Of a stretch of DNA of 64,000 nt, positions 31,811 through 64,000 are shown one piece after another. A program made the translations under genes and the position numbers. Origin of the DNA: Macrostomum lignano (Eukaryota). The DNA is taken from contig NIVC01004009.1 in NCBI GenBank assembly GCA_002269645.1, positions 836 through 64,835 on the forward strand, in the 5' to 3' direction. How positions within the stretch are numbered: position 1 is the stretch's first letter; each line of letters starts with the position of its first letter. The notes under the pieces are model-generated. The model did no database searches. It was not told the DNA's origin and saw nothing but the letters and a program-made list of their open reading frames with translations.

Positions 31811-32545
31811 AGAGGAACGCACATCCAATCCCAGGCGCTGACACGGTGAAAGGACTGATAAAAGTCAATTTACTTCGAAATAGTTAATGTTACCGATATT
31901 TCGAGTAAGGTTACTCTTCGTCAGGGCAGTACTCATATTCGAGTATAGTTTATTTGCGCGAATTGCTGTCAAAATATTTAAAGGCGATAACGTTGGGGAG
32001 GAAAATCGATAAAGAGAGAGGTAGAGAGAGAGAGAGAAGAGAGGTCACGGCGTGTTTACAAAATAATTAATTTAGTATGGGCTAACGGTTTCGAGCCTTT
32101 GGGCTCTTCGTCAGGCCAAAAATCAGTGTTTCATGCAGTGCAAGTTGGTCTTTTAAGTATTAGTTTTCTCAGTCTAATAAAATCGCTGAGCTGCTGTACA
32201 TATGAGGGGTGTACATTTAAACTGGGTTCATTCTAGCTCTAACTTGTCCCAGAGGCTTTCAACCGGTCAGTTTAAGCGACGGTATATTTAGTATATTAAA
32301 AAATTGTTTTTTCGAAGTTACGATTAAATAAAATGCGGTATTGAGGGTGGGAGCATAAAAATCGACATTTGTGCGTACAGTCAAGCAGTTTGAATAAAAT
32401 ACACGACAAAGTGAATAAATATTGTAGTTCTATAGGTAAAAAGAGCGCATTGGTTAAAACGATTCAATGGTTTCCTGGCTGGACGCTGGACGATCCGTTG
32501 GAAATAGACCCAGATCTCAACCTTCTTCCATTTCCGATTGAAAAC

Positions 32546-33652
32546 ATGGCGCGAAGGAATCCTGCCGTCCATCGAGACATTAAAGAGACAGTTGGGTCTT
32601 ACACTATGGACAAAGATTTTGCGACCTTCATTGACCACTTTGATTTGGTATCAAGAGAATATGGATTACAAAATCCAGAAAAGGCGCTACTCCTCCCTCC
32701 ATTGCTACAAGGCACAGCCCGAGAAATTTATGGAAAATTAGATGCAGCTACACAACGAGATTACCATGCCATGATCACCCAACTTCGAACACAGTTCGCA
32801 CGATGCGGAACCAATCGATCGGTGTTGTTACATAAATTACATAACCGGAAAATGACACCCACGGAATCATTCCTCACCTTTGTCGATGATATTCGACAAA
32901 TCATCAAAGCCTTGCATCAACAGCAACCGCAACCAGCAGCAGCAGCTCAACCCCTTGGACCAGCAGAAGTGGCTGCTAGAGAAAGACAACGGCTTGCAGA
33001 TCAAAAGCAAAGTCTAATTCTTAATGTCATTAACAATGCTCAACCTGCCTTGCGAGATAGACTCCTGCGAGAAACAATTGAGACAGAAGAACAGTTACTC
33101 CGCTGTGGAATGCAGTGGGAGGCAAGCGCACCTCTTCTGGCTAACCGCACTAGTGACACCGCACAATTAGCAGAACAATTAAGCAAGCTTATGCAACAAC
33201 ACCAAGCCGCAGCAATTGCAATGCGCCCGCCACAAAGCAACCCTCGAAACGTTACTTGTCACAATTGTGGAAGAGTAGGTCATTACTACAGAGATTGCCG
33301 CCAAAACTTGCGTCAGAATCAACCACGAAATTATTCCGGTGGAAACAGACGAGACAACTGGTCCCGCTATCCAAACCAACAATATCCATCAAACAGAAAT
33401 CGGATGAATAATCGACCACCACCATGGCGGGATAACTTACAACCTTACAACTCACGCCGACCCGCTCCACCAAGGCAGCCAACGCAGGTGCATAGACAGT
33501 ACACACAGGCCATTGAACCACAGGCCAGTGAACAACAGGCTATCGAACCAAAATTTTCGGTAGAAGAATTAACACCAGATTTCAGTATCAACGTACGTGA
33601 TACTCTCTTTGAAGATACCGACTACATGTTACCATCTCCAACGGTGCAATAA
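32546..33652 (+). CDS. gag: Ty3/Gypsy Gag
   Basis: Retrotrans_gag-like F..FIDHF...KALLLP.LLQGTAREIY...ESFLTFVDDI and CCHC knuckle CHNCGRVGHYYRDC. Confidence 0.9.
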   Translation: MARRNPAVHRDIKETVGSYTMDKDFATFIDHFDLVSREYGLQNPEKALLLPPLLQGTAREIYGKLDAATQRDYHAMITQLRTQFARCGTNRSVLLHKLHNRKMTPTESFLTFVDDIRQIIKALHQQQPQPAAAAQPLGPAEVAARERQRLADQKQSLILNVINNAQPALRDRLLRETIETEEQLLRCGMQWEASAPLLANRTSDTAQLAEQLSKLMQQHQAAAIAMRPPQSNPRNVTCHNCGRVGHYYRDCRQNLRQNQPRNYSGGNRRDNWSRYPNQQYPSNRNRMNNRPPPWRDNLQPYNSRRPAPPRQPTQVHRQYTQAIEPQASEQQAIEPKFSVEELTPDFSINVRDTLFEDTDYMLPSPTVQ

Positions 33653-35640
33653 TCCGAACCGGAATACGAGAATCTTGCTACAATTCTTAATGCTGAAAAA
33701 CGGAAACGGACAAACAAAGGTGTGAACACTCAACCGTTCCACTTCTCACGTAACCGATTCACTCAAACAGAAGATAACACCTACGTTACGATGAATGTCG
33801 GAGAACTGCATCAACAGACTTCTTCTACGCCGACTCGACCAGAATTCATGGGTACCTTTCGAAGACACCCTACAGCGTGTCACCCACCAGCGTATCAGGA
33901 ACCTTTAACACCTGTACCCCACTCAAGAAAATGGTTCTTCCGTCCACAAGACATCACTCCATCTGAAGAACCAGAAAACGACTACGAGGAACTGGACGAA
34001 ACCACGATCACAAGTCACTCCAACAAGAAAGGAGAACAAGAAGAAAGTATGCCGATGCCGAAGAAGAGCAAGAAGAGACACCCTCTAATGAAATGGCTAT
34101 TTGCGATGATCCTTTTCGTCCTGCTACCACTGGTAACTTCAACTTCAGTACCAATGATTTGTCCTACAGACGCTACCATCCAGCCGGTCATCTACAAAAT
34201 TCCTACGGAAATCAAATGCAGTTATTTTAAGACGAATCAAACAAAGCCGCTACCGCTTACAATCGACATCTACAAAGCGAATACAAAGAAGCATCGACAG
34301 ATGGGAATTGTGTGCTTTAGAGACAAAGACGAACTCGAAAAGATTTGGTTGGTACAATGGAACCGAATCAGATATTGGCAAACATCGATGAAGGTATCAC
34401 ATGAAGAATGCCTCCAGTGGAACCAAACCCTGTTTTCCAAAGACGGTGAATTGAAGCTCCACGACACGTCAGCAAACGGAGCGCAACTATTCCGCACCAA
34501 CAACGTAGCCGAAGGAAGATATGTGCACTACCACGCAGCACGATGGCCTCTGTATACTGTCTACAACAGCTATCTGATTCGAAACGTCTTGTTCTACCAC
34601 AATCCTTTCGAAAACATGGAATCCTTGCAACTACCGCTTGACCAATGCCACTACAGCTCAGGATATTGTGCTACTCCTAACTACAACAAAGAGAAAGCTC
34701 AAAACTTACCGCTAGCTCCGAATTATTTCCATGACTATCGATACCAAATCGAGTACAGATCGGATTCTCGATACAAGGAACCGAGTCGAACTCGCAAATA
34801 TTTCATCGCATGGGAAGTCAAACTGAAATTGACTGCAAACTACAGAAATACCATACTGTTCAGGGAAAACTGCTATCTAACATCTTCCTTGCCGATTCTG
34901 GAGATCTAGCTCTTACCTTTCCAAAGCAACCAAGCTATACACAACTGAAATGCAAGGAAAACAATGAACAACTAATTCTATCTGACCAAGAAATACCAAT
35001 TGCACTGAAGGACATGGACAAGAATGTATTTTTGAAGGTGATAAATGGTACCTATCCAAGAGAAGAAACCTTGGAAAGACAAAAGCGAAACTTGCCCAAA
35101 CCTTCGTTAGTATCAGCACGACTTCTGGCAGCAAAACTAGCCGCCATGGAACACACAAACTGCACAAGCAACTGAACTATCTGCATCGCTCCATGGTCAA
35201 ACTGACATGTCGAATGCACGAGACCAGTCTAAACTACGCGCGACAGAACTACTACGTCAACCCTACGACCACCTTCAGGAAAATCACAGGAATTGAAGAT
35301 GTCCTCGCCGTTCCGGTTTATGGATACTTGCTAATCTACAAGTGTACTCCGATCCATCACTTTAACATCTTGTCATCAAACACGTCAACAACTTGCTACG
35401 ACAAACCGCGGATTGAAGCCTTCTACAATGGAAAGCGAATTCGAGGATTTTTGGATACGGTCCACAACATCATTGTCGGAACTGCCATCCCACGACCATG
35501 TACCAATTCGGCCAACTATTTCAACGTGAACGATCTACTACATCAAATTTCGCCAACAGGAGACATCAAGAACATCTCGAAATCACAAGCCATTGTTGAT
35601 GAAATTTACGAAATGTCGGATCTTCAACTGAAGTTTAATA
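33653..35640 (+). pseudogene. env: env-like glycoprotein between gag and pol, broken by two frameshifts (~34810 and ~35180) and lacking a TM anchor
   Basis: In frame with gag across one TAA. Internal signal-like stretch WLFAMILFVLLPLVTS (~34094) followed by MICPT...IKC, GIVC...VSHEEC; furin-like RQKR at 35077-35088; NPTTTFRKI...LLIYKC. This cysteine pattern recalls class III (chuvirus/rhabdovirus/gB-type) env ORFs of invertebrate LTR elements. Confidence 0.65.
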
Positions 35641-35644
35641 GAAC

Positions 35645-38600
35645 AACGAAATCCTCATCCCCACAGCACTGGTACTAATCAGCCGACAAAACGATTCCGG
35701 TACAAATCGTCAATCCTAACCAGCACCCAGTGAGAATCTACGCAGGAACCTGCATCGGACATCTCAGCACACAAGCGTCAGTGATGCTTATTCAATCAAC
35801 ATCGACAACATTGCCAAGGACACAATTCCTAGAACAAATCGATCTGTCACAAAGTCCAATCACCGAAAAACAAAAGAACCAAGTTAAAGATATTGTATGG
35901 AAGTACAACGATGTTTTCTGCCACCACGACTACGACATTGGACGAGCCAAAGACATCAAACAGAAGATCACACTGCTGCCGCACCAGGAACCGATTCAGT
36001 GCAAACCGTGTCCGATTGCAAAACATCTACAACAACACTTCGACGAGATCATCGAGAAAATGCTCAAAGCCGGTATCATCAAGAAGACAGTTTCAGCCTA
36101 TTCCTCTCCATGCTTGCTTGTCGAGAAGAAGGACACAAACGAGAGAAGACTTGTCTGCGATTTTCGAGTCCTAAACAAGTATATCCCGACAGATCAACAA
36201 AGCCCACCCAAGATTTCGGAACTAATGGCGAGACTCAACACAGCGACACTCTTCACAGTCTTTGATCTACGACATGGATTTTGGCAAATCGAACTAGAAG
36301 AAGAGTCTAAGCAATACACAGCCTTTAAGACGTACAATGGAGAAGTCTTCGCTTACCAAAGAAGTCCTATGGGAATTTCAAACTCACCTGCTACAATGAG
36401 CTGACTAACAGCCTACATGCTTGCTGGATGTACCAATCTACTCCACTATGTAGACGATATTCTTGCCTTCGGAGAAGACTTCGAACAACTACTCCAAACG
36501 ATGGAACTCGCGTTATTCCTTCTCAGGCGACAAGGTCTCAAACTACAACCCACCAAGTGCAAGTTTTGCCGAAGCTCGGTACGATACTTGGGACACCACG
36601 TATCCGCAAAAGGAATCTCACCAGATCCAAGTAATGTGGAGAAAGTAAAGAAATTACCACGAACAACCTCTATAACAAAATTGCAGTCCTTTCTTGGACT
36701 AGCACAGTATTTCCGAAAGTTTCTGCCAAACTTTGCCAAAACTGCCAAACCGCTATACGAACTGCTCAAACAACCAAAGTGGAAGGAAGAAAACTGGAAG
36801 GACGAACAACAAGAAAGCTTCGAAAAGATCAAACAGCAACTGACGACCGACGCCTTACTGCAACATCCAAACTTCCAAAAACCCTTCATCATTGAAACCG
36901 ACGCCTCAGGAAGTGGACTAGGCGCAGTTCTACTGCAAGAAACGGAAAGAAAAGTCGAAAAGCCCATCGCCTACATCAGTCGAGCTCTACGACCAAACGA
37001 AACCAAATGGTCCGCCACAGAAAGAAAATTACTTGGAGTTCTGTTCGCACTACGACAGTTTCACTACTACATCTACGGTTCTCCATTACCGACAATTTTC
37101 AGAACCGACCATGCACCGCTGACGCACGTTGTCCAGACGAAAGGACAGACTAACAACCGCCTCATCCGAATGACACTCAAAATTCAGGATTACAACTTCC
37201 AACTAGCCTACAAACCGGGACCACTCAACAAAGCAGCAGACGCACTCTCCAGAGCTTACGAAGTCAACGCTATCCATCCGATTCCGAAAATGCAAGAACT
37301 GATTACAGCACAGCAAGACGACAACTTCTACAAAGCCGCACAAAACACCGACGACACCACGCAAGCCAAATTAACAGAACAAGAAAGAAAATTCCTTAAA
37401 AAACAGCGCGACAACCTAATCTTCAAAGAATCAATCCTTTATTGGATCTGTGACAATATTCCGCGAATCTATCTGCCATATTTGTTTCGACCCGCTATCT
37501 TGCAAGAATTGCACGACATGCCATTAGCCGGACACCTTTCCGCTAAGAAGACAATCGAACGAGTGACAAAATTCTACTTTTGGCCGACAATGGTTGGTTA
37601 TTCGTAAGTGAGACTTTAGGTCGGAATATCTTTATTATGAACAACTGCACTTTCAACTATTGCAATCTGTAATGGTCTTCGGCACTATGACAATTGCGCC
37701 ATATTGATACTGCACAATTAACTTTCCATAGCGCTAATCTTTTGTTGTTGGTGTTTGCTGTTTTGTTCTAAAAATAGGCGTCCATTATCCCGAGTTTGAA
37801 ATCATTATCCTGAAGTTTAAGTGAAAAAATAAATAAATGTGCTCATGGTTTAACCATAGACGATTGCATTATCCTAAAGGCTGATTTTAGACAATGACCA
37901 AAGACATCAGCAAATATTGCCACGAATGCCACTCATGCGCAGCCGCAAAAACGGGACGACGCCAAAAGCCACAACTACAAACAGTACCGAAAACAACGAC
38001 ATGGGACACAGTCTCCCTCGACATTTCGGGACCACTACCTGCCGCACGACAACACTCGATCAACTACACATACATCCTCACCGCTCTCGACGTCTTCTCG
38101 AAATTCGCTATAGCAATCCCACTGCCGAACATTACCGCCGAAACAGTAGCTATGGCGTTCTACAACGAGATTGTCTGCAAGTATGGAACGCCCAAGACTC
38201 TAACCACCGACAACGGAACGCAGTTCACCTCACAACTATTTCAACAGGCTGCAAAACTGCTTAACATACAACAAATATATACGTCTACCTACAACCCCAA
38301 AGCAAACTTAGTAGAAAGATTTCACCGCAATCTACACGAAATGCTGACCCACTATGTCTACAAGCAACCAGAAGATTGGATCATCTACTTGAAAGCGGTA
38401 ACAATGGCATACAACAGCGCGAGACATCGGTCAACGGATAACACGCCATTCTTCTTGATGTTTGCTCGAGATTTTCAACCGCCCAGCCTACTCGCAAAAC
38501 AATTACTACCATCTCAGTACGTGGAAACACCGCCGACACTCCAGACCTTTGCAACGCGACTACACCTGGCTTGGCAAATTGCCAAACACACTTTTGACAA

Positions 38601-38967
38601 CCAGACGGCAACATCGACAAAAACCAACAACGCATCTACGCTACAAGTCGGAGATATGGTCTATTTGCACTATCCAGCACAACAGACGCACAAACACGCA
38701 CAAAAGTACAAAGGACCATTTCGTGTATCAGCACTGACTTCGGCAACCACAGCCAAACTGGCCAATGTCCAAGATCCACATCAGCTGCAGTTCTACGTGC
38801 ACATTCATCGACTGAAACGCATCAACACAGACTCTACATTTCTGCCAAATTTAAACAATGAAAATCACACAAAAAGACCGTCTAAACACATTGCTACTTC
38901 TCACGCTGAAACACAAACTACGGACACTCCCATAACTAACCACCCCTATAGCCTTAGACCCCGCTAG
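35645..38967 (+). pseudogene. pol: Ty3/Gypsy pol (RT-RNaseH-integrase); protease absent, stop at 36402, insertion at 37593-37889
   Basis: YSSPCLLVEKK, RLVCDFRVLN, FDLRHGFWQI, YVDD, IETDAS..GLGAVL, HDMPLAGH...CHSC, LDISGP, DNGTQF, ERFH, KGPF. Confidence 0.95.
37593..37889. mobile_element. 297-bp AT-rich insertion in the integrase, with 7-bp TSD
   Basis: GACAATG at 37586-37592 and 37890-37896; removing the insert restores FWPTMTKDISKYC. Confidence 0.8.
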
Positions 38968-39072
38968 ATTACTAACACCCGTGTGGAACTCGGGAAAGAA
39001 TAAGTCCACAGCTTCACTGTGCTTGTCGTAAGAGGCGACTTAACAGAAATCTATAGCAACTGAAACACAATA

Positions 39073-41088
39073 ATGGCTAAAAAATTCGAATGCCCTGTCT
39101 GTCTAGACAACAACCTTCCGAAGAAACCGCCATGTATATGTGTAAATAATCACCGCACATGCGGCACTTGCCTCAGTGACGCTCATTATATCCAGCCCTG
39201 GCGAAATTGCCCCATGTGTCGAAGCGCTCTACGCCAATGCATGATTTGTACATCATGGCGCACCTACAAGTTCTGTACCAATGAACATTTTCTATGCATG
39301 CGTTGCATCAAGAAATTAGCTAGGCGATCAGTGCTTCTGTGCCCTGAATGTGATGCTTTTCCTCTGGTAAAAATGCGCGACCAACTTTTACGTATACAAC
39401 CGGTACAAACGGTTCAGTTATCTGCATCCATAGTGCATCAACTCGCTCCAATAGACGTTATTCGCCGACTAGACAAGTGGCCCCTTCCTAAAAACTCTCG
39501 CTCCGCATATGTGCACCTCGTTATGTACGAGGTGTATTCAAAAAGTTCTTTTCGGTGCCCTACAAAACTGAACACAAAACAACTGGAACTATGAAAACAC
39601 TGTTAGATTGCTTAACATGATTCTGTCACTCAACATATTCACCGCCAATGTCTTTGCACTTCTGCCAGCGATTTACCAGGCCTCTGATTTCGGAACTCAC
39701 ACCACTCGCGTCCGTTTGGCGAACAGCTTGATTGCATGCAGCTTCGATGTGCTCGACGCTGTCAAATCGAATGCCCCGAAGGTGCTTCTTCACAGATGGA
39801 AATAAGAAGAAGTCGCACGGCGACAAATCAGGCGAATAGGGTGGATGTTGGAGCACTTTCCAGCCCCATTTGCTCAGGAGTTCCACGACGTTGTGCTTGC
39901 GATGTGCTGGCGCATTGTCGTGCAGCAGGATCACGCCAGATTCCAGCAGACCAGGGCGCTTCTTTCGTATTGCTGGGCGCAGCTTCTCCTGCAGAATCCA
40001 CTTGTAGTAGTCCCCATTGACGGTGGTTCCTTGTGGGACTGCCCAGTTCAGCAGGATTCCTAGGGAATCAAAAAACATGACGTGCATGATCTTTATCGCG
40101 CCCTGCTTCCTGATGGCCTTCTGAGGTCTTGGAGAATGTGCTGGAAGCCATTCGGCAGACTGGGCCTTTGTCTCAGGATCCCAGCTGTAAACCCACGTCT
40201 CGTCTCCAGCAACAATTCTTGATAGAAAATCCTCCCCTTCTCGATGGAACCGACGCAGGTGGCTGCTTGAAGCCAGAGTTCGCTGCATCTTTTGCTCACC
40301 TGTCAGCAGGTGTGGCACCCACTTGCAGAACTTTTTCTGTAGGAGAAGACGCTCAGTCAGAATAGTGTGGACGCTTCCACTGACACACCAACGTCTTCTG
40401 CCAACTCTTCGCAAGTCCGTCGCCGATCATCATCCAAGAGCTCTTGCACTTTCTTCACAACAGTCTCTTTGGTTGCAGTCATCGGCCTTCCAGAGCGGCC
40501 ATTGTCCTCAACGCTCTCTCTTCCCTCAGCGAACAGCCGGTACCATTTTCGAACTGTCTGCTCAGTTGGTGCACAGTTGCCAAGCACTTGCTGAAGCTCC
40601 CTAAACATATCCGGTGGCTTTTTTCCTTGCAGAAACTGAAACTTCATCAAGCTTCGAACGTCTTGCTTTGAAAATGATTCAGCCATGGCCAAGAAATTGA
40701 GTGGCAGCTGATAGAAATGTTCGCTGCTCTAACATAGTTGCAAACTGAGACTTAAAACCCTAGGAACGTTTAGGCCATAGACATAACTTGGTAAAATCGC
40801 TAAAATTCTGCTTACAACGCTTTCTAAAAATAAATGCCAAAGGACCGAAAAGAACTTTTTGAATAAACCTCGTACACACATCATAATAGACACCGACTAA
40901 TACTCTTCCCGTTACAACGAAATCAACAACGTTTGTTACAGTATCTATCAATATGCGAACAGCCAAGTCTTCCATTCCACTGTGCTATAATACCCCTACT
41001 TATTAAGAAGCATGCCGATTTAACGATGTTATTAAAGTATAGCGAGCTAATAGCCTGGCAAGGCGATACGTACGACGAAGTCGATTAA
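39073..41088 (+). CDS. Double-RING-like protein A1 (222 aa once the mariner is removed; segments 39073-39527 and 40875-41088)
   Basis: CPVC...CVNNHRTCGTC...CPMC followed by CMIC...CTNEHFLCMRC...CPEC. The reconstructed frame is open to GDTYDEVD*, matching the uninterrupted copy at 44211-44441. Confidence 0.75.
39528..40872 (-). mobile_element. mariner transposon (DD34D), 1345 bp, with TA TSD and one frameshift
   Basis: TIRs CGAGGTGTATTCAAAAAGTTCTTTTCGGT / ACCGAAAAGAACTTTTTGAATAAACCTCG; TA at 39526 and 40873; HTH exon MAESFSKQ...GRP; GDETW, HDNA, HPPYSPDLSPCDF; frameshift near 40380. Confidence 0.97.
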
Positions 41089-41121
41089 TAAAGTATACCA
41101 GTACCTCCCCTTATTCCCCAG

Positions 41122-41724
41122 ATGGAATCATGTCCCGTGTGCTACGAGGAAGAAATCACACCATACGTCTACTGCCAGAACGGACACAAGCTGTGTTTCC
41201 TCTGCTGCACTACAGAACTGATGGACAAGTGCCCCCTGTGCCGAGCACCACCTACCAACTGCCAAGTGTGCAACGAAGTCCCACAAAGGCAACTCTGTGG
41301 AAACAAGCACTGGGTATGCCACGACTGCGTAATGTCAATACAGTGACGCAACATGACAAGGTGTGTCACCTGCGCTCAACCAATCTTAATCGACACCCCG
41401 GGCAACAATGACCACATAATCACGCTAACGACGAATACCTTAAACAACTTAAGGACAACTGATCTTGCCCAGATCATCAGAGAGTGGCCTATACCCTACA
41501 ACCGGCAGCCACAGCTAACCTTCTTGTTCCAACGGGCCCGACATTACGCCATGACGACAAACGCCCTTCCTGCGGAGGAAATCTACCTCAACCTACTTCA
41601 CGAGACCAACACTCAGGAGTACACAGCCGTTCAACACCTCATCTGGCCCATAGCATTACTAACGGCAAGTATCAACAATTACTTCATCACAACGCTCAAC
41701 GACCACTTTGCTTCTTGCTACTAA
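41122..41724 (+). pseudogene. Double-RING-like protein B1, with one nonsense codon at 41344
   Basis: CPVC...CQNGHKLCFLC...CPLC and CQVC...CGNKHWVCHDC...CVTC, then IREWPIP. TGA where B2 has CGA. Confidence 0.75.
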
Positions 41725-41851
41725 ACATTCACATAGCTCAATTGACTCTACCTTCCACCAATTATGGCCACATAGAAAACAGCATTGTTTCTACGCACCA
41801 ATCACAAACAATAACCATCGAAACACCCGAGTCCACTACAATTAGTCTACG

Positions 41852-41852
<1 letters not shown>

Positions 41853-41901
<49 letters not shown>
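41853..41901. repeat. (TA)n microsatellite
   Basis: Pure TA run; the paralogous position near 45237 has only a few TA units. Confidence 0.95.
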
Positions 41902-41905
<4 letters not shown>

Positions 41906-41975
41906 ACTACTCGCCTACATACATAGCACACGCCTTACGAAACTACCCTACCACGCTACCATATCTTGCCTTACA

Positions 41976-42584
41976 ATGCCTGAAGTAGAATGCCCCGTCT
42001 GCCTGGAGGAGGCCACCTACCAGCAGGTGATGTGCCAATACGGGCACAAAACCTGCTTCAGGTGCGTCGACTCCGGCATGATAGCCATTTGCCCACTATG
42101 TCGCGACCCCCTAATAGCGTGTAGCCTTTGCGGGGACAATCCCCAGGTGAAGCTGTGCCAGTCTCGTCACTGGTGCTGCTTCACCTGCCTGCAAAGGCTG
42201 GGTACACGTGGTATCACCTATTGCCCTAATTGCCTTGACACTCTCCTTCCCCCGACAGTAGAATTAAACCAAAATACCGAAATCTGGCCAGAGGTGGGCC
42301 TGCATAACCTGGAACAATTCACCGAACGAGAAATCGCCGACAATATCCGAGAGTGGCCGCTGCCGGTCGAGTTGCACGACGCACGCCAGCGACTGCTAGC
42401 TTTCGGCCGGCAACAAGCGGTTACGGAACCGCCTAGATCGGCGGAGGACATCTACAACCAACTAACTGATACGATGAACAGCTCCCACTACATCCCACTA
42501 CAACATCTGTTCTGGCCAGTCGCCAGCTTGGTGACACGAACGCAACGATACATCCGGCGCACCTTGACGGACATTTTTCAATAA
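41976..42584 (+). CDS. Double-RING-like protein C1, intact, 202 aa
   Basis: CPVC...CQYGHKTCFRC...CPLC and CSLC...CQSRHWCCFTC...CPNC, followed by a helical tail with IREWPLP and LQHLFWPVA. Confidence 0.8.
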   Translation: MPEVECPVCLEEATYQQVMCQYGHKTCFRCVDSGMIAICPLCRDPLIACSLCGDNPQVKLCQSRHWCCFTCLQRLGTRGITYCPNCLDTLLPPTVELNQNTEIWPEVGLHNLEQFTEREIADNIREWPLPVELHDARQRLLAFGRQQAVTEPPRSAEDIYNQLTDTMNSSHYIPLQHLFWPVASLVTRTQRYIRRTLTDIFQ

Positions 42585-43874
42585 ACATTGTGACACTGTC
42601 ATGTACTCTTGCTTATCTTAACTGATTTACTTACGTAACTGTTTTGCTTGTATGTGTTGCTCCCTCATGTGTATCTTGTATACTCATATTTTGACTCTCC
42701 CCAATAAGTGACAATGACTATGTCTTCACCAACTTACTTAGCATCTGGCATGCAATTGCTTCCTTGTTCACATACTCAGCTGAAAATTATTATAATAACC
42801 ATGTAAATAAAACAATATTCACCAGTTCAACCCTTCAGCTTATAAAACAAATTCGAGACGAATTTTTTGTAAAAAAGGAGATATTGTAGAGATCTCCAAA
42901 TACGATACAAAGTAAACTACTGTAAGTAGTAACATAAAAAAGCGAAAAACTTGAATGTTATAAAAATTGCAAAATTGTCATACTCTATTTTAAGACCGTG
43001 AATACAACGTACGACGAAGCATGAGACAAGTTGCTACTATGGTGAAATATGTTGCAACTATGGTGAAATATGATAAAATATGATGAAATCTGATGAAATA
43101 TGATGAAATATGAGTCGCGCTACTAAGTATATACCAAAAATTCGTCTATAAATATAAGCGTAAAATCCGAGCTGAAACCTCAGACTCGGAGCAGCCTCAA
43201 AAGATCTTGTGGTTAGTTAGAGCAACTAATCGACGCTATATCTCTGGGAGAGAAGCGTATCAATTGTGAAGTGTTGTTCAAGTCTTCGTTATTTTGATTA
43301 ATTAAGAGCGATTTTATTGCCGGCCGGCCGTTGCTGATCCGTTGAATTTACTGAGACTATTTTAGGCCTCCCATTTTCCTAAGCGATTGGATAGGATCTG
43401 CGGATCGATTCCGATACCCTTAGAGGATTACTGACTGTTGATTTGGATTATCCTAGATTAACAGATAGGAGCACACGACTCCCATTCCGTTAGATCTAAA
43501 AGAAGACGCCCCTTTTGGAGGACCTCGCGTTAGAATTCGAGTTTATTAGGGCGCTCTGTTGATACTGATTTGGCACTCGAGAAACGTACTGAATCCCGCA
43601 CTCAAGGAGATATTTCGACGTCGACTTCACTGTTCTGCTCTCACTCTCGGCCGACTTTGGACTTCGAAGACTTCAAGAAGATTCCTCCGGAGAAGAAGAT
43701 TGGAAGAAGCGAACTCTACAAACGCGCGCATTAAAGAAGAAACAAGGAACAAGCTCGGAGAACCTGCCCGACACAGAAGAAGAATCCGCCACAGTAAGTG
43801 CACACGTTAAATTTGTTCCCAGGCTTAAGTGTCTGGAAGTGGGAGTTTACGGGTGACTGATCACCTCCCGAATC

Positions 43875-44441
43875 AACTCTTCAACCATATCCAATTTTGG
43901 CAAGCCTGCCCCATATGTCGTGGCGCCCTATGACAATCTATGATTTGTACATCATGGTGCACCCAAAAGTTCTGTAAAAATGAACATTTTCTATGCATGC
44001 AGTGTACCAAGAAACTAGCCGCTCGAAAACTGCTTATGTGCTCTGAATGCGATGCCTTTTTCCTTAGTACAAATGCGCGATCAACTCCTACGCATACAAC
44101 TGGTACGAACGGTTCAATTGGCTGAAAACATTGCGTACTAACTCGCTCCAATAGACGTTATTTGTCGACTAGACGATTGTCTATTTCCTAGAAACTCTCG
44201 CTCGGCATATGTGCACCTCGTTATGTACGCACATCATAATAGACACCAACTAATACTCTTCCCGTTACAACGTATTCAGCAACGTCTTTTAAGATACTTA
44301 TCAACATGCGAATTACCATGCCTCCCATTTCATTGCGCTATATTATCGATACTTATTAAACGAAATGCTGATTTAACCATGTTAGTAACGTACAGTGAGT
44401 TAACAGCCTGGCAAGGCGATACGTACGACGAAGTAGATTAA
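43875..44441 (+). pseudogene. Double-RING-like A2, 5'-truncated, with a stop at 43931 and a frameshift
   Basis: Nucleotide-level copy of A1, lacking the mariner. Confidence 0.75.
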
Positions 44442-44474
44442 TAAAGTATACCAGTACCTTCCCTTATCATCCAG

Positions 44475-45077
44475 ATGGAATCATGTCACGTGTGCTACGA
44501 GGAAGAAATCACACCATTTGTCTACTGCCAGAACGGACACAGGCTGTGCTTCCTCTGCTGCACTACAGAAATGATCGACAAGTGTCCCTTGTGCCGAGCA
44601 CCACCAACGCACTGCCAAGTGTACAACACCGTCCCACAACTACAACTCTGTGAAAACAAGCACTGGGTATGCCACGATTGCGTAATGTCAACACAGCGAC
44701 ACAAAATCACAAAGTGTGTCACCTGCGCTCAACCGATCCTGGTCGACACTCCGGACAACAATGAACACAAAGTCACACTAACGACAGACAGCTTGAACAA
44801 CATGACGACAACTGACCTTGCCCAGATCATCCGAGAGTGGCCTATTCCCTACGACCGATAACCACAGCTAACCTTTTTGTTCCAACGGGCCCGACATTAC
44901 GCCATGATGACAAATGCCATTCCTGCGGAGGAGATCTACCTAAGCCTACTGCACGAGACCAACGCTCAGGAGTACGCAACGGTTCAACACCTAGTCCGGC
45001 CCATCGCACTACTAACGGCAAGCATCAATAATTACTTCATCACAACGCTCAATGACCACTTTGCCTCTTGTTATTAA
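44475..45077 (+). pseudogene. Double-RING-like B2, with one nonsense codon at 44859
   Basis: Copy of B1; TAA where B1 has CAG. Confidence 0.75.
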
Positions 45078-45278
45078 ACAATAACATAGCTCAATTGACT
45101 AACACTCAGATAGGGATAAATAGTAAACACCTACCTTCAACCAATTATGGCCACGCAAAAAAACATTGTTTCTACGCACCTATCACAAACAATAACCATC
45201 GACACTCCCGAGCCAACTGCAATTAGTCTACGATAACATATATAGGCCACGGCTCGCCAACATACACAGCGCAGGTCC

Positions 45279-45585
45279 TGTTGTGACTTTTCATGCAAAT
45301 AAAGTAGAGAGCGCTAAATAGAAGTTTGTAGTTAACGAGAGAGCGTTCTGGAGCTAGAGAGCCCGCGCGCGAGCCTAAATAACTTACTAGCCGATTTTAT
45401 TGATTCGCGTAGATAACAGAACCACAGAAGAGGGGGTGGAACGTACATTTATCGAGAAAGATAAGCGATGGACGAAGGGGGGTGGCGTACATGGGGGGCC
45501 GAGGCGCTGATCAATAAGGTGGATGGTTAGGCAGAGAGGGGAGCAAGTGCAGGCGCACTTATATTAAAATAACAATTTAGCGACA
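45279..45585. mobile_element. Solo LTR, 307 bp, TG...CA, with 5-bp TSD
   Basis: GGTCC|TGTTGTG...AGCGACA|GGTCC; absent from the paralogous B1-C1 spacer. Confidence 0.85.
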
Positions 45586-45608
45586 GGTCCTACTAAATCT
45601 TCATTTAC

Positions 45609-45902
45609 AATGGCAAACACAGAAGAAGAGTGCCCTGTGTGTTGGAGGCGGCCACCTTCCAGCAAGTAATGTGCCAATACGGGCACAAAACCTGCTTTAG
45701 GTGCGTCGACTCAGGAATGATAGCTACGTGCCCCCTATGCCGCGACCTGTTAATAGCTTGTAGCCTTTGCGGGGACAATCCCCAGGTGAGGCTGTGCCAG
45801 TCCCGTCACTGGTGCTGCTTCACCTGCCTGCAAAGGCTAGGTACACGCGGCATAACTTACTGCCCCAGCTGCCTCGGCACACTTCTTTCCCCGACGGTCT
45901 GA
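45609..45902 (+). pseudogene. Double-RING-like C2, frameshifted after CPVC and 3'-truncated
   Basis: Near-copy of the C1 RING region. Confidence 0.75.
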
Positions 45903-46865
45903 AAAGTACTATAAAAAGCTCATGTTAACCAAGCAAGAAGCTCGCCCCTCCCTGGCCTTGCCTCTCTTTCGCCTCTCTTCTCCCTTCTCGCTATTCTAAC
46001 TACTTTTGGTTAAAACAGCTAGGGTCTCAACCCAAACACTAAAACTGATAAATTGACTCACTAAAACTAAAACAACAACCAACCCACGTTCCACAATAGA
46101 CGGAACCTTCGGTTCACCCGAACACTTAGAAACCCATTGGAACTCGAACAAAACGAGCTTCTTATTTGGAATTCCATCTTAGACATTATATTTTGTAAGA
46201 TAACATCTCGAGATTGTGACCATCAAATACAACGGTCTATAAGTTACCATCAAGTGTTTGCATCATCAGGAAAAGTCAGTTGAATCCGCCGCCTCAGTTA
46301 TTTGGCTCTCACATTGATATTTGAAGTAGAACAAGAGCCATAGAAGTGAGAGACCAGAAGAAGAACAATAACATATATTTTAAAATATTTCACTCCTCTA
46401 TGCGACGTAATGTACAGAATATGTGCCACTGCAGCATCTAATATGGCCGATGGCATGTCTAACACAAAAGACACGGAACTAACATGGGATACATTCTGAT
46501 ACACATAACTATTCTGAGACTAACAGATACGAGCTACAGTAAGATAGTGCAACGTTGTTCTACTATATCGGAATTCTTACACCCATGCCTGACTCAAATA
46601 TACTCGTACCAATAGATATAACATGGTATCACAGGAAAATACTTTTAATCTATGTCCAGGCCACCGTAATTCAGAGTGAAACTTGAAACCAATGCATGCC
46701 GGCCTAGAAAATATGCGCTACTTTTCACCAATTAAAATTTAATGGTTGCAACAACGAACCAATGATAGCCGCCATGCGTACCTACATATATATACTCATT
46801 AACAACCATCCATGCCTTGCCAAACACCCTTTGTAAAAATTTAACACAAGACTATACCCTCCGAG

Positions 46866-47489
46866 ATGGAAGATATGTGCCCCGTTTGCCTGGAAGAGAA
46901 ATCCCAGCAACGACCCCTCTGCCAGAACGGTCATGGAATATGTTTCACCTGTTTCGATATGGGCTTCAGTCACAACGGTTCATTATGCCGTGATCCGATC
47001 ATTAGCTGCAGACTTTGTGGGGAAGATCCCAACGTGAAACCATGTAGCTCCAAACACTGGAGCTGTTTCACATGCCTCCAGAGGCTAGCACGACGGGGCA
47101 TTAGCTATTGCCCCACCTGCTTCGGGCCGATAGAACCGGCCGCAGCTCATCTAGTACAACAAACGCCAAGACACAATGAACTCGGTCTCAACAACCTAGA
47201 AGCCTTACCAGCACATGAGATTGCTGCCAATGTGCAGGCTTGGCCAATACCAACTAGCCTGCACGGTGCGCGTCAACATCTTCTGGCCGTTGGACGATAC
47301 TACACCATGGCCGACAGTTTGCTGATCCCGGAGGAGGAGGTGTACTACCACCTCCTCGAGGCAACAGAAGACACGCAGCTAACCACAATTCAACACCTCA
47401 TGTGGCCCGTGGCGGTGTTGACAGCCAGAGTACAGAGAATATTCCACATATTTTTGACGAACATTTCGATTAGAAAAAAAACAAGCTAG
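46866..47489 (+). CDS. Double-RING-like protein D, intact, 207 aa (diverged C-type)
   Basis: CPVC...CQNGHGICFTC...(S)LC and CRLC...CSSKHWSCFTC...CPTC, followed by VQAWPIP and IQHLMWPVA. Confidence 0.8.
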   Translation: MEDMCPVCLEEKSQQRPLCQNGHGICFTCFDMGFSHNGSLCRDPIISCRLCGEDPNVKPCSSKHWSCFTCLQRLARRGISYCPTCFGPIEPAAAHLVQQTPRHNELGLNNLEALPAHEIAANVQAWPIPTSLHGARQHLLAVGRYYTMADSLLIPEEEVYYHLLEATEDTQLTTIQHLMWPVAVLTARVQRIFHIFLTNISIRKKTS

Positions 47490-48287
47490 GACTCTCACCT
47501 GCATACGAACATATTTAAACTTTTAACGCGACAATCGGTTATTACGGTTTAATATTATGTCAATATATTGAATATATCAAATAACGTTTTCCATATCATT
47601 AATGAGCCGCTTGCCTACTGTAAATCGCCTTTAAGTCCCAACGTAAATTCGGGAGAAATTTTTCGTAAAAAAGGGAGATATTGTTGAAGTCTCCAAGCCT
47701 CATAACCTACTAGAAGTAGTAAGATAAAACTATGAATACTATTTAAAAATTAACATGCGTCAAAGTAATAATTTTTAGTAATACATGCAATATCACGTAA
47801 ACAGAGAGTGACCATCAACATAGTCCAAAAAACCGGTTTTCAACCTATATGGTAAATGTCAATTTAAATGCGATCCAAGCTTCACCCTTTTCTATGTAAA
47901 ACCCCACCGGTCAAGAGACAAAGTCCATCTTTTGATTCTTATCAGTAGAATTTTCCATCCGTTCCACCTCCGAGAGTAATTCAGAAAACTATTGAATAGC
48001 ATGCTGCGACATAGTGCCCACAAAGACGTAGATAGTTAAGGAGCGAGCAAATCCAGTTTAATCAATCCTCGCCAGCGCCGATGAAACTCCCGCGGCAAAG
48101 TTTATAGTAGGCCTAGAGAAAAAAACCCCAATAAAATCGATCATCCTACGATCCCCACCCCCAGTAGGGGTAAGAGCCGTAAATAAAACAGCGGAGGCCC
48201 ACAACCCTCACCCGCGTACATTTGGCTAGCCACGTATGTACAATGCCAAAACAAGAATTAACTAACAGCCGAAATTATTCCCGCACA

Positions 48288-48641
48288 ATGGCCGGTCGTG
48301 GGTGGCGCACCTACACAGCCTACGATGCGTATCAAAGAAGGCCGGGCATCCGTTTTAGAGATGTCACGGTGCAAGGCCAACCGTGCATGAAGGTGGACGC
48401 CCCGACGCAGGTTACAGAGAAAGACCTCGACGGCGGGCGATCCGTGGCTTCCGGAACCACGGATCCCGAAGGGGGAGTCGTCCGAATCCCAAGAAGGGCA
48501 TGGCCGGGGGGCGACTATGAACCAACATCAACTAGCCGCTGGCGGTCTCTCCAGACCCACCCCATCTTTGCCTGGGGCAACCCCAACGGAGCGCCCCGGA
48601 AGCAAAAAATGATCGGCTACATAAGTAGTAGTATGATGTAA
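48288..48641 (+). CDS. Orphan ORF (MAGRGWRTY...), function unknown
   Basis: Open frame with protein-like composition in an otherwise AT-rich stretch; no recognisable motif. Confidence 0.3.
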   Translation: MAGRGWRTYTAYDAYQRRPGIRFRDVTVQGQPCMKVDAPTQVTEKDLDGGRSVASGTTDPEGGVVRIPRRAWPGGDYEPTSTSRWRSLQTHPIFAWGNPNGAPRKQKMIGYISSSMM

Positions 48642-56970: not shown

Positions 56971-58078
56971 ATGTACCGCTCGATAAGTTCCTTACGTCTT
57001 GATTCCTTGTCCATCGCGACGATTCAACAGCCCGTAGTAAAAGTAAGTTGTCAATGAGCTCGATCGAATGAAGGACAGACTTGTAGACCTTGGAGTTTTT
57101 ATTAAAATGCCCCTTGGAGAGGGGCAGCGTGTCGGATCATTCAACCTCACCCAACGCCGAACCTCGAGACGAAGTCGCCCTGCCTATTTTCGCAGAAGAT
57201 TTTTGCAAAACTCTGTTCGACCTTTTGAGGTAGATTGCGTTTTTGTTAAATGTCTATGTACTGTAATATATACTTTTGCCATTTAAAAAAGTTGCCAAAC
57301 TATTTTCTGCTGCAGATCGGTGGAGCGCATAATCGAGATTGAGCTGGAGGCCAAGTCAGTCTGCAAGATACTGTTTCGCGCAACGAAACAGCCATGTCGC
57401 CACGCGACGGAAGGGTCTTCTGCAGACTACAACCCGGTGCAGTGGGTACCGCTTAAGGCCGCGTACGCTTGCCTCGGCTTTCGAATGAACGACCCTGCGC
57501 ATCCGGACGGTGTGGAAGCCGCGCCGAGCGAATTTAAGGGGGTCTCAGGCCGTTACCACCTATCCATTCAGGCGACGTCCCTGTTTCGACCGCGGATTGC
57601 GACCGGCTGGAAGCTCTCCTTCGCTTTACGATCTATCGTACTAATGGACAGGAACCCAAGCAACCTAAATCTGTTTGCTGGACTCCGCCGACAGCTAGCC
57701 AAGAATCCGACCAAGCTAAAGCGCAAACTATCCACTGGGTCGGGAGAAGAGGAAGAGCAACCTGGGAAGAAGAAGTCCCAGACTTCGTTGGGGAGACAGC
57801 AAGCCAAGAAACCAGCTGCACCCCGTCGCTCTTCTGGCACTAAGAAGCAACAACAAAAGAAGGAGCATGAGCAGCACGACAGGTTGGGCGCGGCTGAGCC
57901 GGTCCCTCCGGTCAAGGTTCTGGTGAGCCCTCCGCAAACAGCTATGCGGTTTGTTGTCAGTGGCGTCCTCGTAGGCACGAACCAAGAATTTACTGCCCCA
58001 ACTGAGCATTTGCTGACTCAAGTGTTCAACGGCAGATCGGTCTCGCACACTCCCCATGAGACAAATATAACTAGCTGA
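56971..58078 (+). CDS. Three-exon orphan gene (56971-57042, 57087-57229, 57316-58078) with a basic C-terminal tail, convergent with the Maverick ATPase
   Basis: GTAAGT...TTGTAG (44 nt, phase 0) and GTAGAT...CTGCAG (86 nt, phase 2) give a continuous frame: MYRSISSLRLDSL...VVK|TLEFLLKCP...LFDLLR|SVERIIEIELE...GRYHLSIQATSLF...WKLSFALRSIV. Confidence 0.5.
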
Positions 58079-58534
58079 TAGACTCCGAGTTCGCGCCTCT
58101 GGATCCGACCGATTAAATAGATTTTGGCAATGGTACACACACGTTAAGGGTATATGATGTGCATATTTTGTGAACATGCCAGTCAAGGCTGTAGATTTAG
58201 CAACTTCGCTTTGTAAATCGTCCACTACCACGAAATCGTGCTCCTGAAGTTGGCTAACCAGCGTGTCTGGAAATCCTCTAACAAAGTGAATTGGACTGTC
58301 GCCTCCGTCTAGCCAAAACGTTCGAATACGTTGCTGTTCCGTCGCTGACAAATCGGTCCCATGACACCAAACTAGACGTTTTGGAGCCTTGTCAAACATC
58401 GCATGGCGTTCCTTCAAGAGTCGCAGGGTCCACTCGGTCTTGCCAGACATCGCTGGGCCAGCAATAATGAACGAGGAATCGTGTGCCAATTGCAAGTTGA
58501 ATGTCTCCGGCGTTGCAGCAGTCATTTTAGGCAC
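57930..58534 (-). CDS. Maverick/Polinton packaging ATPase (FtsK-HerA/A32-like), C-terminus truncated near 57930
   Basis: Walker A GPAMSGKT, Walker B VVVDD, HCQNLF...RTRSLSASYICL, ending at AYEDATDNKPHS. Confidence 0.9.
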
Positions 58535-58946
58535 TCAGTTTCTGTTTCAAGGACATCATTTTTGATACCATCTTGGCAGTAACCTTTTCACCGAAAGGTG
58601 TTTTTGGATCTTGTGCAATCTCACGGGCACCGGTTTCTAGAACCCGGTCTGCCTCCAAGCGTTCCTTTACCCCCTTGTGCTTCGAATAGGCCAAGTCGTG
58701 GATCAGACACAAATCATCAAGACGATTAACCCCGCGTTGTCCCTCCGATAAACGCTGGCGTAGGCGGGTTCCGAAACCACAGAAACGGTAGCCAGGTATT
58801 TGGACCTCAACAGGCAAATGGTTGATTAACCAGTTTACTATTCCGGAACCTCGTTTTTGCTTCTGTTTTGAACTTCTACTTTTGGAATCAATTCGGCCTG
58901 ATACGAGTTTAGTTTTCTTCTTCTTTTCAACTAACTTTTTACCCAT
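58527..58946 (-). CDS. Parvovirus VP1u-type phospholipase A2-like protein typical of Mavericks/adintoviruses
   Basis: PGYRFCGFGT.L..RL...GVNRLDDLCLIHDLAY...R..AD..L, preceded by a basic RGSG stretch. Confidence 0.85.
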   Translation of the reverse strand: MGKKLVEKKKKTKLVSGRIDSKSRSSKQKQKRGSGIVNWLINHLPVEVQIPGYRFCGFGTRLRQRLSEGQRGVNRLDDLCLIHDLAYSKHKGVKERLEADRVLETGAREIAQDPKTPFGEKVTAKMVSKMMSLKQKLSA

Positions 58947-59096
58947 CCAAAATATCGGTACCAGCAAAGCAAAAGAAAAAAATCGATAGTAGACAAGACA
59001 AAATACCCTTGCATATAGCTTTTAAGCGTGGTTATTGTGTATTTAATCTGAGGTTTCTCAAATTTTTAAAGTCTTTTTGTTGCTCTTGTTGCTCAT

Positions 59097-59624
59097 TTAT
59101 CGACCGGTGCTACCAAAGCCCATAGCTCCGCGCTTGCGGGGCTTGGGTTCAACAATCAAGCAGCACTCTCCAGGAGCCTCCTCCAGCACGACCGGAACCA
59201 CCAGTGCCTGTTCCAAGATCAGCTGGGCAATGCGTTCTCCAGCCTTAAAAGTGTAGTCTTCAAAGCTGTGGTTGTAAAAAATCACAGCAATCTCGCCGGC
59301 GAAATCCGGGTCGATGACACCCGCACCAACATCAATGCCACGCATTGCAAGCTCAGATCGCGGTGCAATCCTTCCGTAGGTCCCGTCCGGAACGCGAATA
59401 GAGATTCCGAGCGGTACAGCCGCGCGGCCGTGTGCAGGAATCAACCTGTCTTCGATGACAGACAAATCGTAGCCGATGGAACCTTGGGTAAGACGCACCG
59501 GAAGCACACCAGTTTCCCGCAATCGTTTCACTTGCAGTACAGCCGGCAGATGATTCGTTGAATCGTTTTTCTGCGTCGTCATTGTCTCGCCACACAGTTC
59601 TGGCTTCTGATCTGTCGAATCCAT
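59097..59624 (-). CDS. dut: dUTPase
   Basis: GYDL, GRIAPRS, GVIDPDFAGEI, GERIAQL, RGAMGFGSTG. Confidence 0.92.
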   Translation of the reverse strand: MDSTDQKPELCGETMTTQKNDSTNHLPAVLQVKRLRETGVLPVRLTQGSIGYDLSVIEDRLIPAHGRAAVPLGISIRVPDGTYGRIAPRSELAMRGIDVGAGVIDPDFAGEIAVIFYNHSFEDYTFKAGERIAQLILEQALVVPVVLEEAPGECCLIVEPKPRKRGAMGFGSTGR

Positions 59625-59976
59625 TGTGGCTGAAATTTGTGAAACAGAGGTCTCTTTGTAGTCACCACCTTCTAGCAGAGATGGTTGCTTATACCCAAAA
59701 TCAAACGCTTCTTCTTCTTCAATATCGACGAATACTAATGGTTTCAATGCGTACGTATTCCACATTTTTTGTGCTAAGTACCTAGCAAATATTACTTTGC
59801 TTACACCCTAAATTCCCAAATGAGTGAAATCTCAAGTTTGACAACATTTATGCAGATAGAATAAAACGATAATTATGCAGATAGAATAAAACGATAATAT
59901 TTAATCAGAAACGTAGCTCGTATATTAGGATTAGATCATTCTTAGTCTACAAAGTAGCAGCAAGTCAATAAATTGA

Positions 59977-62900: not shown

Positions 62901-63949
62901 TAGCGATTCTACTGGCGCGCATCGGCTCACACGAAATTGTTTTTGGTCTGACGAGGCCCACTGGACTGTCGGTTGGTCCATAGTTCCTCCCTGACAATTG
63001 TGCTGCTTCAAAATGTAGTCCCACGGAACGGTGTGGGAAAACCCGACCAAGCAGTCGGGGCAGTAGCGCCTCCGTTTATTTCTCGTGCTCAGCAGCGAAT
63101 TCACATTTCGGACGGGTATGTAGTGCCCCAAATTGTGCTCACCGTACGGAGGAATGAACAAACAATTGGCTAAATGCTTCTCCTCCCTGTTACGCAATGA
63201 AAAGTAGAGAACACCAGTCTTGCTTTCGTGATCCCAGACAAATATGCGCAAGCTGATATGCGGGTTTCGACGACAGAACTTCCTGTACGAACCAGCTGTA
63301 TGTCGAGCCGGACCAACCCTACTACCGAACAACACCATCATCAGCCATGGGGCGTAGCTTTTTTTGAGGTAGGTTTGGCAACCTTTTCATAAAAGATGCT
63401 TGCCAATATTGAATACCGAAAACAGTCGGTTTGGTTAGCGTTGTGTGGCTTAGAGTAGATTACTGCATCTCGTTTGCGCCGAAGCGAAATCGGCACTTTG
63501 AATGGACCGCCACCGCCACCGCCGCCGCCGCCGCTGCCACGTAGGGTGGTTGTACGACGCCTGTGACCAGACGGCGCCGTCTGGTCGCTGGTGTTGTTCT
63601 GAGCAGTGCTAGCACTACTACTCGCTCTCGTCGGTCGAACACTCCCTTTACGATAGATGCACAGCATCAAGTCCAGTTGTTCGATTCCACCATACTGCCA
63701 ATTTGAACCTCGGGCAGTAAAATTTTCCAATTTGCTCACCAATTCTGTGACAACCGATTCGAACCATTCGTTGAAGGCATCGCGCGAGAGCAGCAACCCA
63801 CCACTGTCGCTTTCGTCAGACCGGATCGTTGCAACGTTAGTGTTGAAATAAACAGAGATATTCTCCAGCATTTCATTGTTGTCATCGTCATCGTTGTTAG
63901 TTGTTCTTGATCGAAACATTTTCACTCTCAAATGTATGCATGTTCGCAT
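59977..63949 (-). pseudogene. Protein-primed family B DNA polymerase of a Maverick/Polinton, split into four frames
   Basis: N-terminal RGSNW; YADIES (ExoI), DHCHLSG, H.LSNYD (ExoII), YLLLDV (ExoIII), YLDANSLY, KLLNNALFGK, DTDS. Frame breaks near 63341, 60820 and 60565. Confidence 0.95.
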
Positions 63950-64000
63950 TAGTAGTAGAGGCGAGGCCAGCCGGTAAAAAGGCGATATATCGAAGTGCGT

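Follow-up and report, generated by a model that had tools for sequence, protein, structure and literature searches.

Tandem-RING genes as cargo of an env-bearing Gypsy retrotransposon lineage in Macrostomum lignano

Three element copies at one locus

The genes described here encode small proteins with two RING-like Cys/His clusters and lie behind a Gypsy retrotransposon in the flatworm Macrostomum lignano, in a 64,000-nt stretch of genomic DNA (contig NIVC01004009.1, positions 836 to 64,835) that we call the window as a whole and to which all coordinates given without a locus name refer. An earlier note on this DNA had described an array of seven double-RING genes (A1, B1, C1, A2, B2, C2 and D, labels that we retain), read as seven open reading frames (ORFs) of ~200-220 aa forming a single cassette. 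Three-frame translation indeed finds RING-type genes, whole or in pieces, at all seven places that this note gave, each on the + strand, and A1 starts 106 bp past the integrase stop on the same strand, as it had stated (pol stop at 38967). However, only C1 and D are open, while A1, B1, A2, B2 and C2 are split, stopped, frameshifted or cut, and the seven do not form one array: a 3' long terminal repeat (LTR), overlooked in the earlier note, separates C1 from A2. The locus is made up of three element copies contributing 3 + 3 + 2 pieces (A1-B1-C1; A2-B2-C2; a B-type tail and D), and whole elements carry two or three such genes rather than seven.

The first element comprises a Gypsy gag-env-pol body (32483..38967, + strand, with Pfam matches to zf-CCHC, Monjiviricetes_fusion, RVT_1, RT_RNaseH and rve), aligned to the sibling element G000:C391, which has LTRs 99% identical to each other and the cassette A-B-C and matches the window at 90-92% from gag through C1. 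The window copy has lost its 5' LTR and retains the 3' LTR only, carries stops and one frameshift in its coding part, has ~1.07 kb deleted (the end of env and the protease) and contains a 297-bp insertion. Behind the pol stop follows a leader (38968..39072, +) with a conserved core of ~65 nt that is retained in families with a dead gene A. Gene A1 is divided into a 5' part with RING1, RING2 and the start of the helical domain (39073..39527, +) and a 3' part (40875..41088, +) by a 1345-bp mariner on the - strand with a duplicated TA (39528..40872). B1 (41119..41724, +) has a CAG immediately 5' of its ATG and a stop at codon 76, and C1 (41976..42584, +) is open and encodes 202 aa, with RING1 at ~6-43, RING2 at ~49-86 and a four-helix domain at ~117-201. 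All three genes lie between the pol stop and the polypurine tract and 3' LTR that end the first element (42871..43883, +); the LTR proper (42885-43883, 999 bp, TG...CA) matches that of G000:C391 at 95.7% identity over 1001 nt.

The other pieces are remnants of two more element copies. The second copy holds A2 (43884..44441, +), with its 5' end gone and with stops and frameshifts, B2 (44475..45077, +), with a stop at codon 129, and C2 (45610..45898, +), with a frameshift near the start and cut after RING2. The LTR end directly abuts the middle of A2, and gene A of an older sibling copy therefore seems to have been the insertion site of the first element. Next to C2 lies a piece of a repeat that is present at both ends of another Gypsy family (45899..46394; G000:C2365, 88-89%). 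The third copy consists of the 3' tail of an eighth gene, of B type (46395..46482, +; 75-77% to the B genes of A-B-F elements), of the open gene D (46866..47489, +), which encodes 207 aa, belongs to the clade of C and has Gly as the seventh RING1 ligand, and of a polypurine tract with an LTR that belongs to the lineage but is diverged and differs from that of the first element (47665..48619, +). We note that G000:C272:383000-430300 is a 95-99% identical duplicate of window positions 31424-64000 in which the A1 mariner and the 297-bp pol insertion are absent.

Two predicted RING domains and a helical tail

Across 25 aligned open copies of the genome, 12 Cys/His positions, C42-R43 and W127-P128 are invariant in 25/25 and P40 nearly so, and the two clusters and the W-P motif that the earlier note had seen are real features of the family. 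The C3HC4 eight-ligand pattern is present in both clusters of C1 and most paralogs, though D and a few copies lack single ligands, and identity to C1 amounts to 21-26% for A, 29-34% for B and 47% for D. RING1 has C-P-hydrophobic-C at both ends, the latter in the form C-P-x-C-R with an invariant Arg after the last Cys (R43), in the position of the linchpin Arg that goes with binding to ubiquitin-conjugating enzymes (E2) in RING ligases. By its sequence, RING1 is likely the active E2-binding unit. RING2 has fixed loops of 8 and 11 residues (the first being that of 8) and is without the Arg.

Both Cys clusters are predicted to fold as RING domains, and structure prediction thereby bears out the RING fold proposed earlier. 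In the model of C1 (predicted local distance difference test, pLDDT, 91.9; predicted template modelling score, pTM, 0.82), residues 1-56 align to the RNF146 RING (Z 5.7, root-mean-square deviation (rmsd) 2.4, 52 aligned) and residues 44-97 to the RNF213 RING (Z 5.4, rmsd 3.0, 52 aligned), with Z 5.0-5.7 and rmsd 2.0-3.0 for the two halves against solved RINGs overall. Profile matches name the RINGs of SIAH1, TRIM21 and Ring1B (E 3e-5 to 4e-5), Sina_RING is matched in 23/25 members at E<=0.05, and among viral models the closest are those of RING proteins from large DNA viruses. The C-terminal tail forms four helices (pLDDT 86 when folded alone), and comparison with known folds gave a best Z of 5.7 among generic helical bundles and a best Foldseek E of 3.1, with no match above background. 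It is the part most diverged between paralogs, down to 11-16% identity between the tails of A and C1. At the other end of the protein, type A of one clade (L036:197-862 and relatives) starts with MGNxxS, presumably a myristoylation-like N terminus, and this start is retained in the RING-only family described below.

Among 1.84 billion representatives, four homologues were found at E<=1e-30, namely the host's own and three full-length proteins on short contigs (P0007-P0009). These three are 25-38% identical to family members here, and P0007 groups with type A; since the best match of P0008 in this genome is at ~30%, we conclude that the family exists in other organisms. The RING-RING-helical architecture is conserved in all paralogs and in P0007-P0009, and the RING1 Arg is kept throughout. 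Other searches added little: 0/42 candidates in a single-sequence search with C1, generic RING matches only among 1632 candidates and P0007 alone among 738 in profile searches, 0 related sequences among 51 pattern matches in a scan of metagenome contigs, and in the Atlas only whole-protein leads under 0.9, with no usable match for the tail.

A single gag-env-pol Gypsy lineage carries the RING genes

The genome holds at least 150 matches to the RING genes at E<=0.001, far more than expected by chance. All genome counts given here are taken among the best 150 scored candidates per search and are lower bounds, and they refer to rows of matches rather than copies; for gene A, 114 of the 150 listed rows were retained after cross-matches to other paralogs and second pieces had been excluded. 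Of these, 112/114 lie beside parts of one Gypsy lineage: the integrase is found at most 900 nt upstream in 87, and 25 more adjoin the leader or pieces of an LTR, gag or integrase. No lineage parts were noted for two rows, one of which (C356) duplicates a linked locus but carries a deletion, while the other (C1588) lies outside the fetched loci. Seen from the other side, gene A or a remnant of it sits at most 900 nt behind 90/94 integrase rows of the lineage versus 0/20 rows of distant families, again among the matches listed. Genome-wide, the RING genes are the cargo of one gag-env-pol Gypsy lineage, and the check on genomic homologues that the earlier note had called for comes out in favor of this linkage.

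Where open, the siblings of the window element encode a single ORF of 2439-2498 aa with the protease between env and reverse transcriptase (RT). An ORF of 2479 aa shows zf-CCHC at 235-250, a weak match to Monjiviricetes_fusion (a class III fusion protein; E 6.7e-5, below the cut-off) at 941-1070, the protease at 1310-1399 and then RT, RNase H and integrase. The siblings share with GAG-ENV-POL errantiviruses the LTR pair, primer-binding site, polypurine tract, target-site duplication and domain order. LTR pairs are 99.0-100% identical in 22/23 fetched elements, and a 4-bp target duplication is present in 20/22 (four cut positions were allowed, and some element pairs may be duplicates of one insertion). 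RING-coding ORFs lie inside the LTR pairs of 18/22 elements, 13 of them with two or three genes and 5 with a shortened A; gene A is dead in the other 4/22. Between the two origins considered in the earlier note, this enclosure by LTR pairs with target-site duplications upholds accessory cargo of an env-bearing Gypsy and rules against cargo of a neighboring Maverick.

The ~65 nt behind the pol stop, i.e., the core of the leader at 38968-39072, are nearly invariant between subfamilies, even where A is dead or pol deleted, and are likely a cis-acting signal by this conservation. Given that 0 of 12 predicted pairs in an RNA fold of the leader show a compensatory change, we do not claim any RNA structure for it. 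The lineage also forms clusters in a single orientation, with + and - LTR pieces numbering 22/0 (G000:C2121:1-70000), 0/16 (C87:225001-285000), 0/11 (C272:355001-440715), 9/0 (C273:236001-276000) and 0/13 (C1405:243001-283000). In these clusters LTRs often adjoin cut sibling genes, like at position 43883 of the window, and they may reflect nested self-insertion or else uni-strand loci resembling PIWI-interacting RNA clusters. Sister gag-env-pol families with integrases 33-38% identical carry unrelated ORFs of 253-318 aa behind pol that have no clear Pfam match (L094:5798-6577 (-); L105:268-1026 (+); L102:5344-6297 (-)).

Cassette content, selection and expression signals

Gene A always comes first in the cassette and forms its own clade, and subfamilies combine it with one or two of five paralog types from the remaining genes B, C/D, E and F; the cassettes that we observed are A+E, A+B, A+F, A+B+C, A+B+D and A+B+F. 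Among the matches listed, 36 integrase rows have a full-length A behind them, 25 a shortened A of about 124-144 codons, 22 a dead A with lost ligands and a stop at codon 71 and 7 other short pieces. In the shortened-A family, the product is a 124-aa protein with two intact RINGs and all 16 ligands in 4/5 examined copies. Young LTR pairs occur in all three kinds. A further family of 6.9 kb is internally deleted and retains a 1008-aa ORF (gag, the start of env and the end of integrase) together with both RING genes in open form; six such pol-less copies are present (G000:C352, C301, C525, C1192, C2869 and C2828), with LTRs 99.8-100% identical in 5/6. Because the full, shortened and dead-A kinds are all young and the six pol-less copies keep their genes open, the cassette is accessory in cis, and its distribution over these sequences suggests that it probably acts in trans.

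Comparison of coding sequences indicates that the RING genes are under purifying selection. The ratio of nonsynonymous to synonymous changes (dN/dS; Nei-Gojobori, 19 pairs that share branches, without transition correction) is 0.13-0.47 in the 15/19 estimable pairs, the remaining 4 being saturated. It is at most 0.32 with p<=0.0013 in 14 of the 15, and the pair at 0.47 has 13 differences. For the integrase, 4/5 pairs gave 0.04-0.09.

A YAG lies 0-2 nt 5' of the ATG in 10/10 genes of types B, E and F (the last of these in second position; the three types are not independent), as opposed to 0/8 A genes and a background of 118/1484 ATGs (8%), and TATA-like runs lie 70-90 nt 5' of the C and D genes. 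The host uses operons and trans-splices a spliced leader at a TNCAG-type acceptor (PMC8629364), which together with the YAG before the ATG makes splicing to the second gene plausible. In four runs that we only guessed to be RNA, contigs match a sibling element over 30, 30, 30 and 29 of its 30 bins; no splice-like joint is among the matches listed, and we do not count these contigs as evidence. A supplement row of PMC12801592 holds a heat-induced RING transcript, which we could not link to this family.

Function of the cassette

The explanation that we favor, with confidence about evenly balanced, is that these genes form an accessory cassette of an env-bearing Gypsy and encode predicted RING ubiquitin ligases with paralog-specific tails, acting in trans on host factors that hinder the element. 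It is based on the position between pol and 3' LTR, co-mobility, purifying selection, variable gene content and two RING folds. RING1 would bind and activate E2~ubiquitin with RING2 as its packing partner, and the helical tail would pick the substrate; since this tail is the most diverged part, the paralogs would differ in their targets. The second gene would likely be read from spliced or trans-spliced RNA. The predicted ligases would tag host proteins that hinder the element and, acting in trans, would be a shared good, so that cassette-less copies and pol-less cassette carriers could both spread. More tentatively, we may be looking at an animal retrotransposon lineage that turns a growing arsenal of its own ubiquitin ligases on silencing or restriction factors of the host. 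Subfamilies would exchange paralogs and share them in trans, ligase-only carriers would coexist with ligase-less cheaters, and the cassette would be the counterpart, in a retrotransposon, of viral counter-defense ligases, with a new substrate-binding domain.

Several points weigh against the favored explanation. Its host-defense target is suggested by analogy to viral ligases; Foldseek with the C1 model gave no match at E<=0.001, though RINGs made up the top rows; the Pfam score of C1 is below the curated cut-off (23.1 vs 29.3 bits); and the RING genes evolve faster than the integrase. Furthermore, the two most numerous young families are those without a full cassette (25 shortened-A and 22 dead-A rows, next to 36 with full-length A), and their LTR pairs are 99.2-100% identical, which argues that any benefit of the cassette is conditional or borrowed.

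Instead of acting on host defenses, the cassette could serve the element's own cycle, e.g., RNA export, particle assembly or release or turnover of its own proteins, like CERV for Cer1 and the RING protein Z for arenaviruses, and we regard this as unlikely, if the most credible of the rivals. The myristoylation-like MGNxxS start of type A would fit such a role, though Gly2 is confined to one A clade. RING2 superposes equally well on Lassa Z and on other RINGs (Z 5.1, rmsd 2.0, 47 residues for Lassa Z), the first place in the cassette always goes to gene A and its RINGs are retained in the shortened family, yet the dead-A family (22 rows among the matches listed) has young, target-duplicated copies and the sister gag-env-pol families do without RING genes. 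A Cys-rich accessory protein of Cer1 is made from spliced RNA and required for export of the genomic RNA (PMC10309623), but several diverged paralogs per element suit many targets better than one core step.

A role as RING decoys or adaptors without catalysis, which would tie up an E2 or a RING partner from the host instead of ubiquitinating a target, seems rather improbable. The RING-only 124-aa form with all 16 ligands in 4/5 examined copies of a young family, the open D gene despite one lost RING1 ligand and a RING2 with a first loop of 8 residues and without the Arg are consistent with decoys, while the three-part architecture kept in all paralogs and P0007-P0009 and the RING1 Arg present in all of them weigh against this role. 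That the genes are neutral passengers captured once, or benefit the host instead of the element, is largely refuted and quite improbable with dN/dS of 0.13-0.32 across subfamilies at dS up to saturation; cassette loss in the most numerous young families would agree with neutrality, as would the broken state of most window copies, but breakage is expected after element insertion. Practically no weight is left for Maverick/Polinton cargo or an ordinary host gene family, both of which we reject. Maverick-like genes for polB, dUTPase and PLA2 are found at a distance of 10 kb in the window and also close to two other loci, but the RING genes sit in LTR pairs with target duplications and not in a polB-encoding element, and only 2/114 gene-A rows are without noted lineage parts, the other 112 adjoining the Gypsy lineage.

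The Maverick-like genes themselves occupy 57728-64000 on the - strand and include polB with an endonuclease VII match, a dUTPase and a PLA2-like domain. The window also contains inverted paralogous tetratricopeptide repeat (TPR) genes at 7534-10059 (+) and 20225-22876 (-), sharing 1087 nt at 96%, which flank a BEL/Pao element (13996-18419) and a 23-nt satellite. We considered these IFIT-like/TPR genes as candidate substrates and dropped them, as nothing beyond proximity links them to the RING proteins.

If they are ligases, the cassette proteins bear on whether animal retrotransposons encode proteins that counter host defense, as complex viruses do. They are small, separable and well-folding candidates, their element families are young, and their host is a model flatworm with transgenesis and RNA data at hand (PMC12801592). 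The natural full, RING-only, dead and cassette-only families offer built-in comparisons. Their substrates, once found, would point to restriction factors of flatworm stem cells or the germ line.

Comparison with known systems

GAG-ENV-POL order has been reported for errantiviruses of nematodes, bryozoans and flatworms (PMC13524379), and the carrier shares with those that have a gB-type env the gene order, a class III fusion-protein match and a flatworm host. By its sequence, the carrier family appears to be catalogued already as Mlig_errantivirus_2, which resembles the short family here in an identical 12-nt primer site, 864-nt LTRs and a 10.6-kb span (PMC13524379). This span is that of the form with a shortened gene A only, whereas for the forms with two or three RING genes, which measure 11.3-12.5 kb, we came across no description, and the main text of this survey has 0 occurrences of "accessory", "zinc", "ubiquitin" or "ring". 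A term search of the Macrostomum LTR paper, as far as its text was accessible, found no RING cassette described. Outside Repbase, Dfam and GyDB, subscription papers and the earlier survey of Macrostomum LTR elements, titles and abstract starts of the open literature do not describe LTR retrotransposons with RING genes either.

The giant planarian Gypsy elements Burro/GYPSM1 carry MATH/TRAF, BIR, BCL2 and SUMO-like domains and an AIR1 motif related to RING Zn-fingers (PMC6431247). They are alike in being flatworm Gypsy elements in which an in-frame env sits between gag and pol and extra domains are linked to ubiquitination and apoptosis, a role for which has been proposed but not tested in that paper. 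However, Burro exceeds 30 kb and has these domains in or upstream of a ~4900-aa polyprotein (PMC6431247), while the element described here is 11-12.5 kb long and has separate tandem-RING genes after pol with subfamily-specific content. CERV, which the Caenorhabditis elegans element Cer1 makes from a spliced RNA, is likewise a Cys-containing accessory protein of an LTR retrotransposon in an invertebrate, but it has H, M and G domains and no RING, shares exons with gag and is needed for RNA export (PMC10309623), whereas the RING cassette is dispensable in cis.

Viral RING ligases such as ICP0 and the RING proteins of large DNA viruses, as well as SIAH/Sina, share the C3HC4 RING fold, with Sina_RING as the nearest Pfam family, but this likeness is confined to one RING of ~45 residues. 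Unlike SIAH/Sina, the proteins have no zinc fingers or TRAF domain and continue after RING1 with a second RING and an all-helical domain, an architecture for which no named family was matched in our searches. Closest in position are the rotifer ORF3 genes (GDSL, DEDDy), which are extra ORFs between pol and 3' LTR and, like the cassette, family-specific non-env genes gained and lost between families (PMC5408684). They encode other proteins (the words "ring", "ubiquitin" and "zinc" occur 0 times in the accessible text of that paper), and several paralogs in series are found only on the Macrostomum side of the comparison. Extra ORFs after pol are a known kind of retrotransposon gene, and what is new here is an unnamed tandem-RING protein family as the cassette.

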